Origin: a virus
Lineage: Duplodnaviria; Caudoviricetes
Strand: one strand, 5' to 3'
DNA length: 64,000 nucleotides
Virus record (IMG/VR): IMGVR_UViG_3300010338_002626
Location: 2,331-66,330 of that record
Positions 21,539 to 60,373 of the stretch are shown here, one piece after another. The notes under the pieces are model-generated. The model ran no database searches and was not told where the DNA came from. It was given only the letters and a program-made list of their open reading frames with translations. The number at the start of each line of letters is the position of its first letter. Within the stretch, counting starts at the first letter, position 1. Made by a program: the position numbers and the translations under genes.

Positions 21539-21572
21539 AATTTTTCTCTGATTGGTTATTAAATAAATATTT

Positions 21573-21611
21573 ATTATACTATAATATAATTATTTTTTAA
21601 ACCTTATTCAA
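21573..21611 (-). promoter_or_regulatory. Promoter TTGAAT-N17-TATATT-N4-TATAAT for the tail operon
   Basis: Read directly from the sequence; same geometry as three other minus-strand promoters. Confidence 0.7.
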
Positions 21612-21628
21612 CTAAATTTTTATATTTT

Positions 21629-21651
21629 TGGTATAAGATAAATGAAGGTGT
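21629..21651 (+). promoter_or_regulatory. Conserved 23-nt plus-strand motif TGGTATAAGATAAATGAAGGTGT (extended -10-like promoter or operator)
   Basis: 19/23 identical to 60300..60322; upstream of the helicase operon. Confidence 0.55.
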
Positions 21652-21725
21652 TGGCTTTATTTTTTAAATTATTAATTATGGAGTGATGAAAGATAGATAT
21701 TATATTATCTAATGTTGCAGAATTA

Positions 21726-28313: not shown

Positions 28314-28544
28314 ATGCTAATATGTACAAATCCTGAATGTGTGGCACATAAACATCCGTCACCAGATAGAGAATTTATATCATTTGATATTTTAAAATAT
28401 AAAATAACTGCAGATGAAAAATTTATAGAAATTCTCGGTTCAACAAGGGAAGAAAATCCAGGTTATTATTGTGCATTATGCGAACATGAGGCGATATACG
28501 ATGAAAATATACAAAACGAACGAGCTGGAGAAGAAACTAAATAA
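28314..28544 (+). CDS. Small zinc-ribbon protein
   Basis: CTNPEC...CALC; GAGG SD upstream. Confidence 0.55.
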   Translation: MLICTNPECVAHKHPSPDREFISFDILKYKITADEKFIEILGSTREENPGYYCALCEHEAIYDENIQNERAGEETK

Positions 28545-28980
28545 ATTACATTTAAAATACAGGGAGGAAAAAAAAGCCTTAATTACTAAAGTACCAGTTC
28601 CATTTAATATTACTGATAAGGGATTAATTGCACAATCCTCAACAGTAGATTATACTGGTTTAATAAGTGGTGGGCTTTTTATTGCTTTTGATGCAAAAGA
28701 ATGCCAGAGTAAAACCAGCTTCCCTATAAGTAATATTCATCAACATCAATTAAATTATTTACGATTTGTTAAAGATTTAAATGGAATAGCATTTTTTATG
28801 ATACATATGAAAAAACTTTATATTGATGAAGTATTTATAACACCAATAACTTTAATTGAAAAATATTGCGATGTTGATTCAAGAAGAAAATCTATACCAA
28901 TAAAAGATTTTAACACACGATGGTTAACACCAATAAATTTATATTTAGAAAAAATCAATGAAATAAAACATGAATTATAA
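28501..28980 (+). CDS. recU: Holliday junction resolvase RecU family
   Basis: STVDYTG, IAFDAKECQSKTSFPISNIHQHQLNYL. Start moved to ATG 28501. Confidence 0.85.
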   Translation: MKIYKTNELEKKLNKLHLKYREEKKALITKVPVPFNITDKGLIAQSSTVDYTGLISGGLFIAFDAKECQSKTSFPISNIHQHQLNYLRFVKDLNGIAFFMIHMKKLYIDEVFITPITLIEKYCDVDSRRKSIPIKDFNTRWLTPINLYLEKINEIKHEL

Positions 28981-38960: not shown

Positions 38961-39755
38961 ATGTCATCATTAAATTCCTACCTAAAAGAAATAAGAAATT
39001 TTAATTTATTAACGAAAAAAGAAGAAACAGAATTATTTTTAAAAGCAAAAGCAGGAGATAAAAAAGCTTATGAACAAATTATTACTTCTAATTTACGATT
39101 CGTCATAAGTGTTGCGAAAAAATACCAAATACCTGGCGTTGAACTAGACGATTTAATTGCAGAAGGTAATATGGGGCTCTTAAAAGCTTATGAAAAATTT
39201 GATGTAAACAAAAAATTAAAATTTATTACATATGCAGTTTGGTGGATTAAACAAAGTATTATTAATTATATTAATGATTATTCCAAATTAATTAGATTAC
39301 CAATGAATAAAGTTATTAATTTAAATAAAATTAATAAAATTAAAGATTCATTAGAACAAAAAAAATCTAGGGAAGTTTCTTATGAAGAATTAGTAGATAT
39401 TGTCGATAATCCTGATATATTAAATGATTTAAAACATAACTGTAGTATTATAAGTTTAGAAAAACCACAAACTGACAATCAAAAAGATTTAAATGAAATA
39501 TTACCAGATCCTGTATATCATATTTCAAATGATTTAGTTTATCTAAAAGAAGAAATTGAAGATATATTAAAAGAATTCTCTCCAAAAGAAAGAAAAATAT
39601 TAAAAATGTATTATGGGATTGGCTATGAAAGATCTTATACATTAAAAGAAATAGGAGAAGAATTTAAATTAACTAGAGAACGTATAAGGCAAATTAAACA
39701 AAAAGCCATTGAAAAATTAAGAAATAAAAAACATTCAAATAGGTTGAAAAATTGA
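38961..39755 (+). CDS. RpoD / SigA-family sigma-70 factor
   Basis: YLKEI...LLTKKEE, NLRFVISVAKKY, DLIAEGNMGLLKAYEKFD, KFITYAVWWIKQSI, IRLP, TLKEIGEEFKLTRERIRQI. Confidence 0.95.
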   Translation: MSSLNSYLKEIRNFNLLTKKEETELFLKAKAGDKKAYEQIITSNLRFVISVAKKYQIPGVELDDLIAEGNMGLLKAYEKFDVNKKLKFITYAVWWIKQSIINYINDYSKLIRLPMNKVINLNKINKIKDSLEQKKSREVSYEELVDIVDNPDILNDLKHNCSIISLEKPQTDNQKDLNEILPDPVYHISNDLVYLKEEIEDILKEFSPKERKILKMYYGIGYERSYTLKEIGEEFKLTRERIRQIKQKAIEKLRNKKHSNRLKN

Positions 39756-47725: not shown

Positions 47726-47764
47726 ATTATAGTTTAATATATTTATTTTATACATAAAAGTCAA
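47726..47764 (-). promoter_or_regulatory. Promoter TTGACT-N17-TATATT-N4-TATAAT
   Basis: Read directly from the sequence. Confidence 0.72.
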
Positions 47765-50503: not shown

Positions 50504-50542
50504 TTTATAATTAAATATAATCAATATTTATATATCAGTCAA
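50504..50542 (-). promoter_or_regulatory. Promoter TTGACT-N17-TATATT-N4-TATAAA
   Basis: Read directly; sits immediately after the capsid terminator. Confidence 0.72.
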
Positions 50543-50601: not shown

Positions 50602-51528
50602 TTATGATAGGACTAATTTTGCTACAGATTTGGTATTTCCAATACCCATACCAATTAGTTCGTAGGCAGAGAATGTAATTATATCTTTCTTTTTCTCTAT
50701 CCAGAATTTAACATCACCTAATACAAGGAATTGACCGAAGTATTCCTGTGCGGTAAAGGCGTAAATCTTATTCTTTAATAGAGAAACTTTATTTGATACA
50801 ACTACTTTCTTACCCATTAATGTAGCATAGGTATATCCATTTACCATAACTTCTGATACTACTGCATCACCGGCAGATGTTGCAGGATACAATGCTAATC
50901 TGTTAAACATTGTTGTATCCATTAACAACATTTCGCATTTTAGTTCATTACCATCCAATATATCGAATAATCTCTTGAGATCACTTCTCTTAATCATACC
51001 CTCTGATCCAGTAACAGATGTATCATATGTTCCTGAGATCAATGTAGTATGGCCATTAGAAGTCTCAATATCGATAGCGGCATCGCAATGACTTAAGAAT
51101 GCTGTATCTTCGATCTTCTGAATATCTAATACAGAATTTCTTTCGATAATTTCTGTAAATGGCATTTCATATGCTAACAATTCAGTTTCTGTTTTCTGGA
51201 AAGTTTCAGACTCGACTTTGAAGAATGGAATCTCGAATCTTTCCCCGACTAGGTAATTTGTGGTTGGATTACCACGGAAGTTAACAACCATAGCCTTTGA
51301 ATCTGGTTCGATATCGACTATCTTTACTAAACCATCATGATTTACTGATCTCTGTAAATCTTTTGATGTTACATATTGTGGTTGTACTATCTGTCTTGCA
51401 AATGACTGCTCTCTTAATTTTGTTCTAATAAAAATAGAACCTTCAGCCATTATTTTTGCAGCACCCTCGGGGGTATTAAGTTTATTTAAAAATAACTGAT
51501 TGACCGCTGATAAATTTTCATCTTGCAT
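50602..51528 (-). CDS. Major capsid protein (HK97-fold, 308 aa)
   Basis: IRTKLREQSFARQIV, DIQKIEDTAFL, C-terminal beta pattern YELIGMGIGN; visibly distinct high-expression codon use, strong SD, own terminator. Confidence 0.8.
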   Translation of the reverse strand: MQDENLSAVNQLFLNKLNTPEGAAKIMAEGSIFIRTKLREQSFARQIVQPQYVTSKDLQRSVNHDGLVKIVDIEPDSKAMVVNFRGNPTTNYLVGERFEIPFFKVESETFQKTETELLAYEMPFTEIIERNSVLDIQKIEDTAFLSHCDAAIDIETSNGHTTLISGTYDTSVTGSEGMIKRSDLKRLFDILDGNELKCEMLLMDTTMFNRLALYPATSAGDAVVSEVMVNGYTYATLMGKKVVVSNKVSLLKNKIYAFTAQEYFGQFLVLGDVKFWIEKKKDIITFSAYELIGMGIGNTKSVAKLVLS

Positions 51529-56232: not shown

Positions 56233-56271
56233 ATTTAAATTTATCCTATATTATATTAAAAGTCAAGTAAA

Positions 56272-58938
56272 TTATTTATTTGAAAAAGATGTCGATGATA
56301 AAAACAAAGATTTACCCGTATACATATCTAATGTAATAATCGCATAAAGTAATGCATGGAAAAAGTCATCAGGACCAACTGATGTATATTTTGTTTTACC
56401 TATAGTCTCATCATGTTCCATTTGAATATTTAAAATATCGTCTAAAAATGGTTCGGAATATTCCCATTTCGGAAATTCAATCTTACCCTTTTTTAATAAC
56501 GCAAAGAAATCAGTCATTATACTTGTACGTCCCAAAGTATATGCAGGCATTTTTGAATTCCATTTTATTTTTTCTTTTTGCTCTCTCATATGTTGAAATG
56601 CCACAACTCTTTCGTATCCTATCCTTGAACGGATTTCTGCATTCGGGGCTTCACCCATCCCATAATCTGCACCTAAAAATTTACAATCCCATTTCTTCAT
56701 CAATCTTGGTATTTCTCTATGTATAAATGCATAATCAGCTTCTTTCCCTATAAATTTTTTCATATATGGGACTATATATTTTTCCGGTGTCTTATAAACA
56801 ACAACACATACTGTATTAGAACTTTCAGAATTAACGGGTCCGTAATCTATACCCATTACTTTATCATAGGATTGACATAATTTATCCGGCTCTGTTAGTA
56901 TAATCTTATCTGGATTACAACATGCTTGTAATTCCATTGTTGTAATTGGAGAAACACCTTCATCATATTCCAATGCTAAAGATTCATTATAAAAAATAGA
57001 TTTAGATGGAACTGTTTCCATCTTTTGTATAACATCGGTTTTCCAATCTACCCACGGTGCGTGTGCAAAATGCAATAAACAGACTCGATAACCTTCTAAT
57101 ATGGGCTTTTGTGTTAGTGAATATGTCGAAACCCATTCACCATGTCTGGTATCTAATGCTTTACCACATTTAGAACATATTACTCCATAATTTCCAATAT
57201 TCGCTTCACCTAAAATTTCCCAAGATCCACAGTGCTCACAACGAATAGCATATTCATTCATCGTCGATTTATACCAAAGATCAGCTAATGTACCTCGTGT
57301 TCTTTTTGGAGTACCTGCATAATAAACTCTTTTTAAAAGAGATCTTGCCATAGTTTCTTTAGCAATAGAAATTGATGCTGGAACTAAATCTTGTGTTTCA
57401 TCGAAGAAATTTATATCTGCACTAATACCTCTAATACTATCGGCACTCGCTAATGCATATTTTAAATTTATCGTACTTCCATTTAAAAATTTCTTTGTAG
57501 ATTGATTATTAACAATTGTCGAATTTATATAAAATTGTTTAATTAATGGGCTCTCTTCTATTACAGGACTCAATCTTTCTGTAGAAAAAACTTTCATTTG
57601 ACTCATTAATGGGGCAACATATAGAGAACTTAAATGCGGATTCATTAAACTCCATGTCAATAATATATTTGCAATTGTAGTAGATTTAGCAGTATTATGT
57701 GTAACAATGGAATCTATTTGAAATGTATGGTGATTATCTACTTCAATTGCTATAGTACGAGCGCGACCAACAATTGAAATTTTTGATACCGAATCAAAAA
57801 TTACATCGCTATCAATTAATTTCTTTATTTCAGGAATATGTTCATATTTTTTTATTTCCTCTAATGAATAATCTGAAGCTTTAACATTTACAGTCGATTT
57901 TAATAAAATATTATTTATATATTCGCATTTATATAAATTGACTTTTTCTTCAAATTGACTGTTACTTTCACATTCTAATTGCTTATCTTTAGCATCAATA
58001 TCTAATATATTTAAAATTTTTAATACGTCTTTATATCTAAATATTGATACAGTATGGCTAGGTTTTTTATTACCTGGTAATATTTCAAATTTATTTTTTA
58101 CTAATAATGATTTATATTTCCCCTTAGTTGTAATTACTCCTAGTTTTAATAATAAATCTTGTAAGCCATAGGCAAATTCTTCATCATTTAAATAAATCAT
58201 TATAACAGGAGTTAATGTCCTCGATAATTTAAATTCACCTATTACCTGTATAATAGTTTTTAAATATTCTACTACACATTCTTCATTACTATTAAAAATA
58301 AAATCTGGATGTTGTTGAAAATTATCTGTTAATTGTTTTATTTTAGATATTGGTAAATTTGCATTATAAAATGATTTAAATAATTGATCATTTTGAAAAG
58401 TCCAATTTTTACCTTTATGTAAAGCTAAAAGAAACGCAATAGTACGAATTTCAGGTAAATTGTATGGGCAATCCTCACTTAATTGAAATGCACAATTATT
58501 ATTTTGTGATATACCTATTCTATCTTTATACTTTAAATTTTGAGCCTCTACAAATCCATTTATAGTCCATATTGGATGATTACCAGTTACATTAATAGCT
58601 CTCTTCGTATATGTTTGAATACGATAAATATCTTCTATGCCATTATCCCAAACATTTGTAACAGTTACAATTTCATTTTTTAATGTTTCTGGATTAAATC
58701 CAATTAGCTTCATTCCAGGTACAATATCTTTTGCTTTAACTTGTTTTCCATTAGCTAGCGATATTTCTTGATTCTCATATACACATTGACGAGAAAATTT
58801 CATAACAATTTCTTTTGCTTCTGAGTTATAAATATCTCTCATGTGTGGGTAGTCAGCTAATGAAAAAGGTTTTCCCTTTAGGTATAGAAATTTTTCAGCA
58901 AAATCACTACGGGATATATTAATAATTTTCTTTTCCAT
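56272..58938 (-). CDS. terL: Terminase large subunit (lambda GpA-like) interrupted by an intein
   Basis: After splicing the Walker A reads SRQTAKST; IRGISADINFFDETQD (Walker B), GTPK motif III, CEHCG / CSKCG zinc finger, GIDYG nuclease, GPDDFFHAL. Likely start MEKK at 58938 (track start 58944). Confidence 0.88.
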   Translation of the reverse strand: MEKKIINISRSDFAEKFLYLKGKPFSLADYPHMRDIYNSEAKEIVMKFSRQCVYENQEISLANGKQVKAKDIVPGMKLIGFNPETLKNEIVTVTNVWDNGIEDIYRIQTYTKRAINVTGNHPIWTINGFVEAQNLKYKDRIGISQNNNCAFQLSEDCPYNLPEIRTIAFLLALHKGKNWTFQNDQLFKSFYNANLPISKIKQLTDNFQQHPDFIFNSNEECVVEYLKTIIQVIGEFKLSRTLTPVIMIYLNDEEFAYGLQDLLLKLGVITTKGKYKSLLVKNKFEILPGNKKPSHTVSIFRYKDVLKILNILDIDAKDKQLECESNSQFEEKVNLYKCEYINNILLKSTVNVKASDYSLEEIKKYEHIPEIKKLIDSDVIFDSVSKISIVGRARTIAIEVDNHHTFQIDSIVTHNTAKSTTIANILLTWSLMNPHLSSLYVAPLMSQMKVFSTERLSPVIEESPLIKQFYINSTIVNNQSTKKFLNGSTINLKYALASADSIRGISADINFFDETQDLVPASISIAKETMARSLLKRVYYAGTPKRTRGTLADLWYKSTMNEYAIRCEHCGSWEILGEANIGNYGVICSKCGKALDTRHGEWVSTYSLTQKPILEGYRVCLLHFAHAPWVDWKTDVIQKMETVPSKSIFYNESLALEYDEGVSPITTMELQACCNPDKIILTEPDKLCQSYDKVMGIDYGPVNSESSNTVCVVVYKTPEKYIVPYMKKFIGKEADYAFIHREIPRLMKKWDCKFLGADYGMGEAPNAEIRSRIGYERVVAFQHMREQKEKIKWNSKMPAYTLGRTSIMTDFFALLKKGKIEFPKWEYSEPFLDDILNIQMEHDETIGKTKYTSVGPDDFFHALLYAIITLDMYTGKSLFLSSTSFSNK
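57694..58785 (-). mobile_element. Intein (364 aa) with degenerate LAGLIDADG homing endonuclease
   Basis: Begins CVYENQEISLANG (block A), VTGNHPIW (block B), ends IVTHN followed by Thr; block H-like FAYGLQDLLLKLGV. Removing it restores the Walker A motif. Confidence 0.92.
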
Positions 58939-59242
58939 AAACAATATTTTTCAATTTATCGAGTAGTTCTTTTCGATCACCATCTAAAATTTCTTTCAAT
59001 TCAGATTCATATTGCAATAAACTTTTTGCTAAAAAATTAAACATACCATCCATATATAAGGCACATTGATCATAATTTTTATTCATTGCAATATAATTCA
59101 ATAAACGTATAACATAAAATTTAATATCCTCGTATCTATCCGATGAATCTAATGGAATATTAAATTCTATTGTTTGAGCTGATGGTGTAGGTTCTGATGC
59201 CGATTTGTTAAATAAATTTGCAATATTTTTTAATATTTGCAT
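58919..59242 (-). CDS. Hypothetical protein (107 aa)
   Basis: Coupled to bS21 via TAATG and overlapping the terL start; has FNKSAS. Confidence 0.6.
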   Translation of the reverse strand: MQILKNIANLFNKSASEPTPSAQTIEFNIPLDSSDRYEDIKFYVIRLLNYIAMNKNYDQCALYMDGMFNFLAKSLLQYESELKEILDGDRKELLDKLKNIVYGKENY

Positions 59243-59406
59243 TACCTTCGATTCCTCTTTTTTCGGTTTTTTTGAGAAGGTTTTTCATAATATTGTTTAT
59301 TTTTGTAAGTTTCTAAAATTTTAAATTTTTCAACTACTTTTTTAAATTGTTTTAATGCCTTATTTAAATCATCTTTTACAATAACAACTGTTGTAAATTT
59401 TTCCAT
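59242..59406 (-). CDS. rpsU: 30S ribosomal protein bS21 (54 aa; absent from the ORF track)
   Basis: Hand translation MEKFTTVVIVKDDLNKALKQFKKVVEKFKILETYKNKQYYEKPSQKNRKKRNRR matches the bS21 pattern (xxALxxFKx...EK.....YEKPS-basic tail). Confidence 0.88.
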   Translation of the reverse strand: MEKFTTVVIVKDDLNKALKQFKKVVEKFKILETYKNKQYYEKPSQKNRKKRNRR

Positions 59407-59418
59407 AATAATTTTTGA

Positions 59419-60222
59419 TTAATTAAAAAAATAAAATCCATCAGCATCTACTTTCAATTCTTTAAAAAATTCAAAGTAATGTGCATATTTGGAATTTTCT
59501 AATAATTTATAAATTATATTATAAGTTGATTTTCTAGGTATACCGAAACCATAGTTATAAACTAATTTACGCTTTTTATCTATATCTTTACAAAATGATA
59601 TTAACGAATTTACATCATATCTCAATTCATCAATTTTATGTTCTAATAAATAATTTTTTGCCCAACTATCTGGTAATTCTTTAATATTATCCAATTGATC
59701 TAAATCCTCTTTCCATCTATCTACTAAATTATAAAAATACCTAACTAAATTTTCAGCGTATTTAATATCCATATAAAATTCATCTTCAGGTTGTTGTGTA
59801 TATTTATATTTATCTGGAGAAACAACCCACCGATCTTTTAATATATCATATACACCAAAGGCAGAATCCCCCCAAAATTGTTCTTTACCATTCCATGGTA
59901 CTAAGAAAAAATTAATTGGGTGCAATGTACCTTTTGCTATATTTCCATTTATTTGTTTTCTCTTTTTTATAATTAATGGATCAGAAATTAATTCTGGTGG
60001 ATCTACAGTAACATTAATATCAATGTCTGAATCTTCAGTCCATTGATAACCAGTTGTAGATCCAATTAAATATAATTCTTTAATATTTTTTAATGGTATT
60101 AGTGTTTGAACTCTTTCAATTATTTGACTTTTAATTTCTTTACGTAATTTACGGCTTTCATCCCATATATCGGGACACAATGTCTTTTGTATTTTATCTA
60201 ATATTCCTGATATTTTTTCCAT
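59419..60222 (-). CDS. Pol-beta superfamily nucleotidyltransferase
   Basis: LIGSTTGYQWTEDSDIDINV (GS...DxD), HPINFF, GVYDIL. Confidence 0.8.
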   Translation of the reverse strand: MEKISGILDKIQKTLCPDIWDESRKLRKEIKSQIIERVQTLIPLKNIKELYLIGSTTGYQWTEDSDIDINVTVDPPELISDPLIIKKRKQINGNIAKGTLHPINFFLVPWNGKEQFWGDSAFGVYDILKDRWVVSPDKYKYTQQPEDEFYMDIKYAENLVRYFYNLVDRWKEDLDQLDNIKELPDSWAKNYLLEHKIDELRYDVNSLISFCKDIDKKRKLVYNYGFGIPRKSTYNIIYKLLENSKYAHYFEFFKELKVDADGFYFFN

Positions 60223-60247
60223 AAATTTAAAACCTAATAGTTAAAGT

Positions 60248-60286
60248 ATTATAATATAATATATAAATAATATTTTTTAAAGTCAA
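60248..60286 (-). promoter_or_regulatory. Promoter TTGACT-N17-TATATT-N4-TATAAT for the NTase-bS21-terL unit
   Basis: Read directly from the sequence. Confidence 0.72.
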
Positions 60287-60299
60287 ATTTAATAATTTA

Positions 60300-60322
60300 T
60301 GGTATAAGAAATATGAGAGTGT
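60300..60322 (+). promoter_or_regulatory. Conserved 23-nt plus-strand motif TGGTATAAGAAATATGAGAGTGT
   Basis: Second copy of the 21629 motif; overlaps a hairpin AGAGTGTA-gatt-TATACTCT. Confidence 0.55.
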
Positions 60323-60373
60323 AGATTTATACTCTTAATTAATAATTTTAACTTATTAAATTTTGGAGGAACT

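Follow-up and report, generated by a model that had tools for sequence, protein, structure and literature searches.

A phage-encoded ribosomal protein bS21 with a short basic tail, carried upstream of the large terminase gene of a myophage

Introduction

Of all ribosomal proteins, bS21 is the one that phages most frequently encode. Phage bS21 genes are commonly found near those for the large terminase (terL), protease and capsid, and they are expressed late (PMC9723584). For the bS21 of freshwater myoviruses, replacement of host bS21 late in infection has been proposed (Chen et al. 2022, ISME Commun 2:31, PMC9723584). E. coli ribosomes take up a pelagiphage bS21, and the pairing of mRNA with 16S rRNA is mediated by bS21 (PMC6375957). 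Tyr54 and the C-terminal domain of F. johnsoniae bS21 contribute to hiding the anti-Shine-Dalgarno (anti-SD) sequence (PMC7797042, PMC9976891); in ribosomes whose bS21 lacks residues 43–64, translation of an SD mRNA is improved 5-fold and that of SD-less mRNA is reduced 2-fold (PMC9976891). The C-terminal domain of Bacteroidetes bS21 is markedly less basic than that of other phyla (PMC7797042).

Could a phage use a bS21 without such a tail end to turn ribosomes toward its own messages? A sequence-only reading of a stretch of phage DNA proposed this for a 54-codon ORF close to terL. Here we describe this ORF, the unit in which it lies and its relatives.

How does the locus compare with the described systems? 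It resembles that of the freshwater myoviruses in that the protein belongs to PF01165 and is encoded by a large myovirus, a few genes from those for the large terminase, the prohead protease and the major capsid protein: in the window, terL is the second gene downstream, and protease-like and capsid genes are also nearby. In the phages of Chen et al., bS21 is on the strand opposite the structural genes, whereas here it is co-oriented and lies directly upstream of terL. Those phages have genomes of 293–331 kb with 31–34% GC, as compared with ~200 kb and 26% GC here, and the phage described here belongs to another terL clade. All 61 bS21 proteins of that study have an aromatic at the Tyr54 position and resemble Flavobacteriia bS21 most, and their phages were assigned Bacteroidetes hosts (PMC9723584). 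In contrast, the present protein has no such aromatic, and the bS21 proteins most similar to it in the core are those of Firmicutes and spirochaetes.

With the bS21 of Pelagibacter phage HTVC008M (Mizuno et al. 2019, PMC6375957), it shares a phage-encoded origin, purifying selection and membership of a family able to enter 70S ribosomes. It resembles the F. johnsoniae del 43–64 and Y54A mutants (McNutt et al. 2023, PMC9976891; Jha et al. 2020, PMC7797042) in having no Tyr54 region; the former mutant loses everything after S42, whereas the phage protein keeps a 10-residue basic helix. HTVC008M bS21 is 54% identical to the bS21 of its host (PMC6375957), and the F. johnsoniae effect is specific to anti-SD-occluding ribosomes. 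Like Firmicutes bS21 (7qv1, B. subtilis; 5nd8, S. aureus; 5myj, L. lactis), the protein is short, with a YEKPS motif, a basic tail and no Tyr54-type residue, at ~36–45% identity. The Firmicutes proteins have 15 residues after KPS, as compared with 10 here, and are 57–58 aa long; the phage copy is therefore only ~5 residues shorter than the normal SD-using type.

Results

The window, by which we mean the whole 64-kb stretch of DNA analysed, is part of a 66.3-kb IMG/VR record with a CheckV completeness of 33% and a GC content of 26%. Its virion and packaging genes encode tail sheath, baseplate J, major capsid and protease-like proteins and a GpA-type large terminase with an intein; a sigma-70 factor, ribonucleotide reductase, PolA, RecU, dUTPase and peptide deformylase are also present (Table 1). 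From the completeness estimate and this myophage gene set, it follows that the window is about one third of a ~200-kb myophage with 26% GC. The DNA sequencing runs that contain it stem mainly from activated sludge and wastewater, and its ORFs fit the standard genetic code. We set aside the IMG/VR class "provirus", as the record is without host flank and the 2.3 kb outside the window are one continuing giant ORF. A second sigma-like gene lies inside the baseplate/tail block.

Table 1. Positions of the features discussed, in window coordinates
Feature	Position	Strand	Evidence or remark
Phage bS21	59242..59406	(-)	PF01165, TIGR00030, AF2 model, Foldseek, pN/pS ~0.13
Promoter-like site TTGACT-17-TATATT (60286-60258), then TATAAT	60248..60286	(-)	Putative; lies between genes, ahead of the unit
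NTase-like gene, 267 aa	59419..60222	(-)	First of the unit; PF01909 26 bits, cut-off 21
ORF107 (107 codons)	58919..59242	(-)	No family; between bS21 and terL
Large terminase terL (GpA-type ATPase)	56272..58944	(-)	phrog_675 E 3e-60, PF05876, PF14890; probable ATG start 58938
Intein in terL	57694..58764	(-)	PF14890 47.3 bits, PF14528 weak
Protease-like gene, 583 aa	52962-54713		
Capsid gene	50602-51528		
Full sigma-70	38961-39755		
RecU-type Holliday junction resolvase	28471-28980	(+)	PF03838, E 2e-30
Second sigma-like gene, 237 aa	13251-13964	(-)	Sigma-70 region 3 (E 2.8e-10)

Is the 54-codon ORF, which runs from an ATG to a TAA, a bS21? It matches Pfam PF01165 with 45.6 bits (E 5.7e-12; cut-off 27), residues 8–54 aligning with positions 2–50 of the 55-position profile. 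The NCBIfam equivalog model TIGR00030 gives 44.2 bits (cut-off 28.95; positions 2–50 of 58), and PHROG 21469 (ribosomal protein S21) is matched with E 3e-8. Since both curated models are matched over positions 2–50 only, the bS21 core is whole and the last 5–8 model positions (51 to the end) have no counterpart; the C-terminal helix is thus shorter than full length. The motifs of the family are in place, with ALKQFKK in the ALRRFK-type helix, YYEKPS for the Y/F-E-K-P-S/T pattern, and a basic C-terminal helix. As the sequence-only reading had stated, the protein stops shortly after KPS, exactly 10 residues past it, and has no equivalent of F. johnsoniae Tyr54 (S42+12; PMC7797042, PMC9976891). 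Lys or Arg occupies 7 of these 10 positions (tail pI 12.0; whole protein pI 10.3).

The AF2 model, built from 35 aligned sequences, has a pLDDT of 82.7 and predicts helices at residues 14–27, 30–38 and 43–53. bS21 chains make up all four matches of a Foldseek search against the PDB (two are mitochondrial, the others from S. aureus and E. coli), with TM-scores of 0.58–0.68; their E-values (0.46–2.6) are weak, as expected at such small size, and too weak to count alone. Among solved structures, the best sequence matches are Borreliella bS21 (8fmw, E 2e-7), followed by those of S. aureus, B. subtilis and L. lactis. These best solved homologues are 57–69 aa long. F. johnsoniae bS21 (7JIL, chain 7jil_z) is absent at E<=1 from the search with the phage protein. 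The nearest relatives beyond its own protein cluster are only ~50% identical among 1.8 billion representatives. The ORF is a genuine phage bS21 and a member of the family, and the gene call of the sequence-only reading stands. That reading had described the gene as unannotated, which is true of its own ORF track; public protein collections already list the ORF under a PF01165 label.

The identical 54-codon gene, including its stop, is present in two independent assemblies, a Logan contig with 99.7% DNA identity (L003) and an NCBI MAG contig (L185). In a ~94% identical strain, represented by contigs of another sludge study, the bS21 stop codon is kept, and comparison with this strain reveals 5 synonymous codon changes (24 synonymous sites) and 3 non-synonymous ones (114 non-synonymous sites), i.e. 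a pN/pS of ~0.13. bS21 is no assembly accident and evolves under purifying selection. The NCBI contig (GCA_964539255.1, contig CAZIIY010000007.1, 1–4600) contains the same operon and extends 3.7 kb past the window's right end into further phage-like genes (SLT-like, DUF192); evidently, a phage contig was binned into a MAG.

bS21 lies in a tightly packed unit on the minus strand, in which a promoter-like site is followed by the NTase-like gene, a 12-nt gap, bS21, ORF107 and terL. The promoter that had been claimed upstream of bS21 is recognisable as a TTGACT-17-TATATT site in the intergenic gap. The same motif occurs at 47764, at 50542 ahead of the capsid gene and, in part, at 56266, each time in an intergenic gap. 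A TAATG overlap had been interpreted as coupling of bS21 toward terL: the overlap exists, but the ATG in it is that of ORF107, not of terL, and it is the 3' end of ORF107 that overlaps the terL start. No terminator-like site was found on the minus strand between the promoter-like site and terL. Such an uninterrupted unit makes co-transcription of bS21 with terL plausible, and the unit claimed by the sequence-only reading is borne out in its packing, its strand and a promoter class that also precedes the capsid gene.

ORF107 is lineage-specific: it has no Pfam, PHROG or NCBIfam match and no homologue among the 84 related loci described below. Its SD (AGAGGA/GAAGGT) sits within the tail codons of bS21: at 59245-59262 (-), the Arg/Lys codons AAG AGG AAT CGA AGG of the bS21 tail are at the same time the ORF107 SD. 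The initiation site of ORF107 thus places a further constraint on the tail sequence. In the 94% identical strain, the last tail codon is AGA instead of AGG. The intein of terL, with a LAGLIDADG-like endonuclease remnant, is inserted at the terminase Walker A region (residues ~61–417; KFSRQ / intein / TAKST). No small terminase was recognised in the window by Pfam and PHROG profile searches. The NTase-like gene occupies the place where a small terminase would be expected.

Relatives of terL number 205 at E<=1e-20, with 40–65% identity and on contigs of up to ~220 kb; they occur without an intein, with mini-inteins, or as multi-intein forms of up to ~1350 aa. We compared 84 related loci, including three contigs found by exact protein look-up and 80 IMG/VR loci. 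In 40 of the 84, bS21 is just upstream of terL on the same strand. These loci form one supported terL subclade (SH-aLRT 97), and the outer branches are without bS21 within 10 kb. bS21 directly abuts terL in L026, L027 and L029. NTase-like homologues are found directly upstream of bS21/terL throughout the terL clade (L026, L027, L111, L113, L141 and others), even in the absence of bS21.

At only 30–45% identity, the rRNA-contacting motifs and the three-helix fold of bS21 are kept across the clade. The tail after KPS is 8–43 residues long. The window's own group (L026, L029/L110, L117 and L111; GC 27–37%) has basic tails of 10–12 residues without an aromatic residue, except for L111 with a Tyr at +10. 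Other groups have a KYG end (Tyr at +13; e.g. L141), a Tyr at +12 (e.g. L131), or a Trp at +13 or +14. The tail encoded in the window is the second-shortest in the clade, and among 75 representative relatives only 3 have a tail this short (10 residues or fewer). Tails throughout the clade are strongly basic (pI 10.7–11.1). Because its nearest relatives likewise end 10–12 residues past KPS, the short basic tail is a lineage trait inherited in the subclade. Insertion of ORF107 as a cause of tail loss was ruled out: sister lineages without ORF107 are equally short-tailed.

In a 205-kb relative recovered from five samples (L136–L140), bS21 (~9639–9860 in L136) contains an in-frame TGA, after which the frame continues through YVKPS. 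When TGA is left open, long-ORF coverage in L136 rises from 0.76 to 0.93, with smaller rises in L131, L157, L127 and L124, which suggests that TGA is read as sense in part of the clade.

How is SD use distributed over the phage genes? Upstream regions were scored against the anti-SD at a threshold of -5.5 kcal/mol, with random positions as background. SD sites precede 24 of 57 window genes (42%), as compared with 3.8% of background positions, in agreement with the earlier claim that many genes carry strong sites. They are found before 11/17 head, 5/11 tail and 5/22 replication genes, each group exceeding the background (p 0.001 for the last), and head genes exceed replication genes in SD use (Fisher p 0.011). 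None precedes bS21, the NTase-like gene or terL. For bS21, whose lack of an SD had been pointed out before, the anti-SD duplex energy is +1.9 kcal/mol. SD sites are selected in all modules, a distribution that a strict late switch does not predict.

In the relatives, the strongest SD sites are on a few head genes, also where the bS21 tail is long or aromatic. Loci whose tails are without an aromatic residue use SD more than those with one (52% vs 36% uncorrected, Mann-Whitney p 0.006), a contrast comprising only 1–2 phylogenetically independent pairs. TGA-split ORFs lowered the apparent SD fraction of several aromatic-type relatives; the corrected values are roughly 54% vs 38% (a rough average of per-locus values), and most of the gap comes from the KYG subclade. 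Tail type and SD use thus appear to covary weakly. We rejected this covariation as evidence for a switch, given the 1–2 independent pairs and the partial TGA-split artefact.

What kind of host might the phage infect? SD use, canonical promoters, the Firmicutes/spirochaete-like bS21 core and RecU suggest a host that uses SD and does not belong to the Bacteroidota. Promoters of Bacteroidota are of the TTTG/TAnnTTTG type. Those of the window are canonical TTGACT/TATAAT and TGnTATAAG and are conserved in relatives. RecU homologues are found in 55 of 50,697 phage records, 53 of the 55 being phages named after Bacillota genera; RecU may be taken as a weak hint toward Bacillota. The phage bS21 shows none of the marks of the Bacteroidota type, namely a Tyr54-equivalent aromatic, a less basic C-terminal domain and Bacteroidota sequence affinity, and the Tyr-bearing relatives L131 and L141 reach only E 0.014 against F. 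johnsoniae bS21. Pointing the other way are one terL relative labelled as part of a Bacteroidales MAG, and several clade members with an aromatic at the Tyr54-equivalent place. On balance, we regard a Bacteroidota host as unlikely. No close cultured phage relative was found, terL, PolA and sheath being <31% identical and sigma and RecU ~42%. The sigma factor is found among mixed phyla in the Atlas. The Planctomycetota and Nitrospirae bS21 proteins among the matches listed (36–57% identity) were rejected as a host signal, as they reflect which pattern matched.

Discussion

The gene described here belongs to a kind of phage bS21 already on record from large phages, in which it lies next to genes for packaging and the head. 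What, then, does it do? In our judgement it is rather probable that it encodes a functional late bS21 that enters the 30S subunit of an SD-using host, its short tail being the form of its lineage. Transcription would most likely be late, as an NTase-bS21-ORF107-terL unit from the TTGACT/TATAAT class of promoter that also precedes the capsid gene. Translation of bS21 would probably take place in the absence of an SD and may be coupled to that of the NTase-like gene, which ends 12 nt upstream. With its rRNA-binding core kept (the three predicted helices, ALKxFKK, YEKPS and the basic tail), the protein would enter the host 30S, where it would replace or supplement the loosely bound host bS21. Ribosomes would thereby stay competent for pairing of mRNA with 16S rRNA at the time when SD-led virion genes have to be translated in bulk. 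The short basic tail of 10 residues is the inherited form of the subclade, in which tails have 10–12 residues, and the host is most likely a native SD user.

Three points count against this reading of bS21 as a functional late ribosomal protein. The last 5–8 positions of the family models are missing, and ribosome binding is assumed. SD sites are fewer on replication than on head genes, a difference that would not readily be expected if the host simply uses SD. Finally, there are the Bacteroidales-labelled terL relative and the clade members with a Tyr54-equivalent aromatic.

Could the short tail instead be a device for unmasking the anti-SD, as the sequence-only reading had proposed? In such a model, the host would occlude its anti-SD by means of bS21, bS18 and bS6, as Bacteroidia do. 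Extended to the clade, in which bS21 next to terL is inherited, the model would have some lineages, including that of the window, lose the Tyr54-type aromatic tail end and spread SD sites over more of their genes, and their tail-less bS21 would be a phage-made switch that displaces host bS21 and frees the anti-SD, so that SD-led late phage mRNAs are favoured over SD-less host mRNAs. The last residue of the phage protein corresponds to residue 52 of F. johnsoniae bS21, so that Tyr54 and Ile55 have no counterpart (PMC7797042), and the proposal retains a small share of our confidence because F. johnsoniae ribosomes with bS21 lacking residues 43–64 favour SD mRNAs (PMC9976891). The concentration of strong SD sites on head genes, the lack of SD before bS21, the NTase-like gene and terL, the higher SD use of clade members without the aromatic, both before and after TGA correction, and the Bacteroidales label of one terL relative would also fit. 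However, replication and tail genes are significantly SD-enriched as well, and relatives with long or aromatic tails have very strong head-gene SD sites. The indirect signs of the host point away from Bacteroidota: the promoters are canonical, the bS21 core is not Flavobacteria-like in the searches described above, and the tails of the clade are all strongly basic, unlike the Bacteroidetes C-terminal domain (PMC7797042). The covariation of tail type with SD use amounts to 1–2 independent contrasts, inflated by TGA recoding in some relatives. We therefore think it improbable that the short tail serves as a switch.

The position of the gene raises a further question: has bS21 been exapted as a nucleic-acid-binding packaging protein that acts on phage DNA, RNA or the terminase and not on the ribosome? 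It is a small, very basic protein at the usual place of small terminase or packaging accessory genes, strictly adjacent to terL and abutting it in L026, L027 and L029, in a window with no recognised small terminase; the flanking NTase-like gene, too, stays with terL in those relatives that have no bS21. We doubt this explanation. The motifs that contact rRNA and the three-helix fold of bS21 have been conserved across the clade at 30–45% identity, the score exceeds the cut-off of an equivalog model (TIGR00030), other phage bS21 has been shown to enter ribosomes (PMC6375957), and phage bS21 genes in general commonly lie close to packaging genes (PMC9723584). Conservation of the rRNA-binding motifs and purifying selection on the gene make both a packaging role and a loss of function less likely. 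A truncated, functionless remnant, decaying or carried as a neutral passenger, might have the second-shortest tail of its clade, no SD and no counterpart to the last 5–8 model positions, but it is hardly credible for a gene with an intact frame in a tightly packed operon that has the same length in three assemblies and the 94% identical strain, a pN/pS of ~0.13, and sister lineages that are also short-tailed.

Taken alone, the window contains an ordinary, well-supported phage bS21. The clade to which it belongs provides a natural series, in which the same gene beside terL carries tails of 8–43 residues, with or without the aromatic that hides the anti-SD in Bacteroidia. This series makes the role of phage bS21 experimentally approachable.

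Two observations concern the regions upstream of genes in this clade. The word AATCA is enriched upstream of SD-less genes (8/36, as compared with 5.8%; p ~9e-4, uncorrected over 1024 words), but the enrichment is lost on multiple-test correction and was dismissed as not robust. In four divergent clade members, the window (59407-59430, -), L027, L114 and L141, AATCAAA is located 10–15 nt upstream of the bS21 start; it also precedes several SD-less genes of the window. At the divergent junctions 21539-21725 and 60223-60373 of the window, a TTGACT -35 box is placed back-to-back with TGGTATAAG, which is extended -10-like, on the opposite strand. The pair of TTGACT and TGGTATAAG recurs in L131 (4023-4180) and L157 (3770-3864), whose terL is ~53–54% identical, so this promoter architecture is common to the clade.
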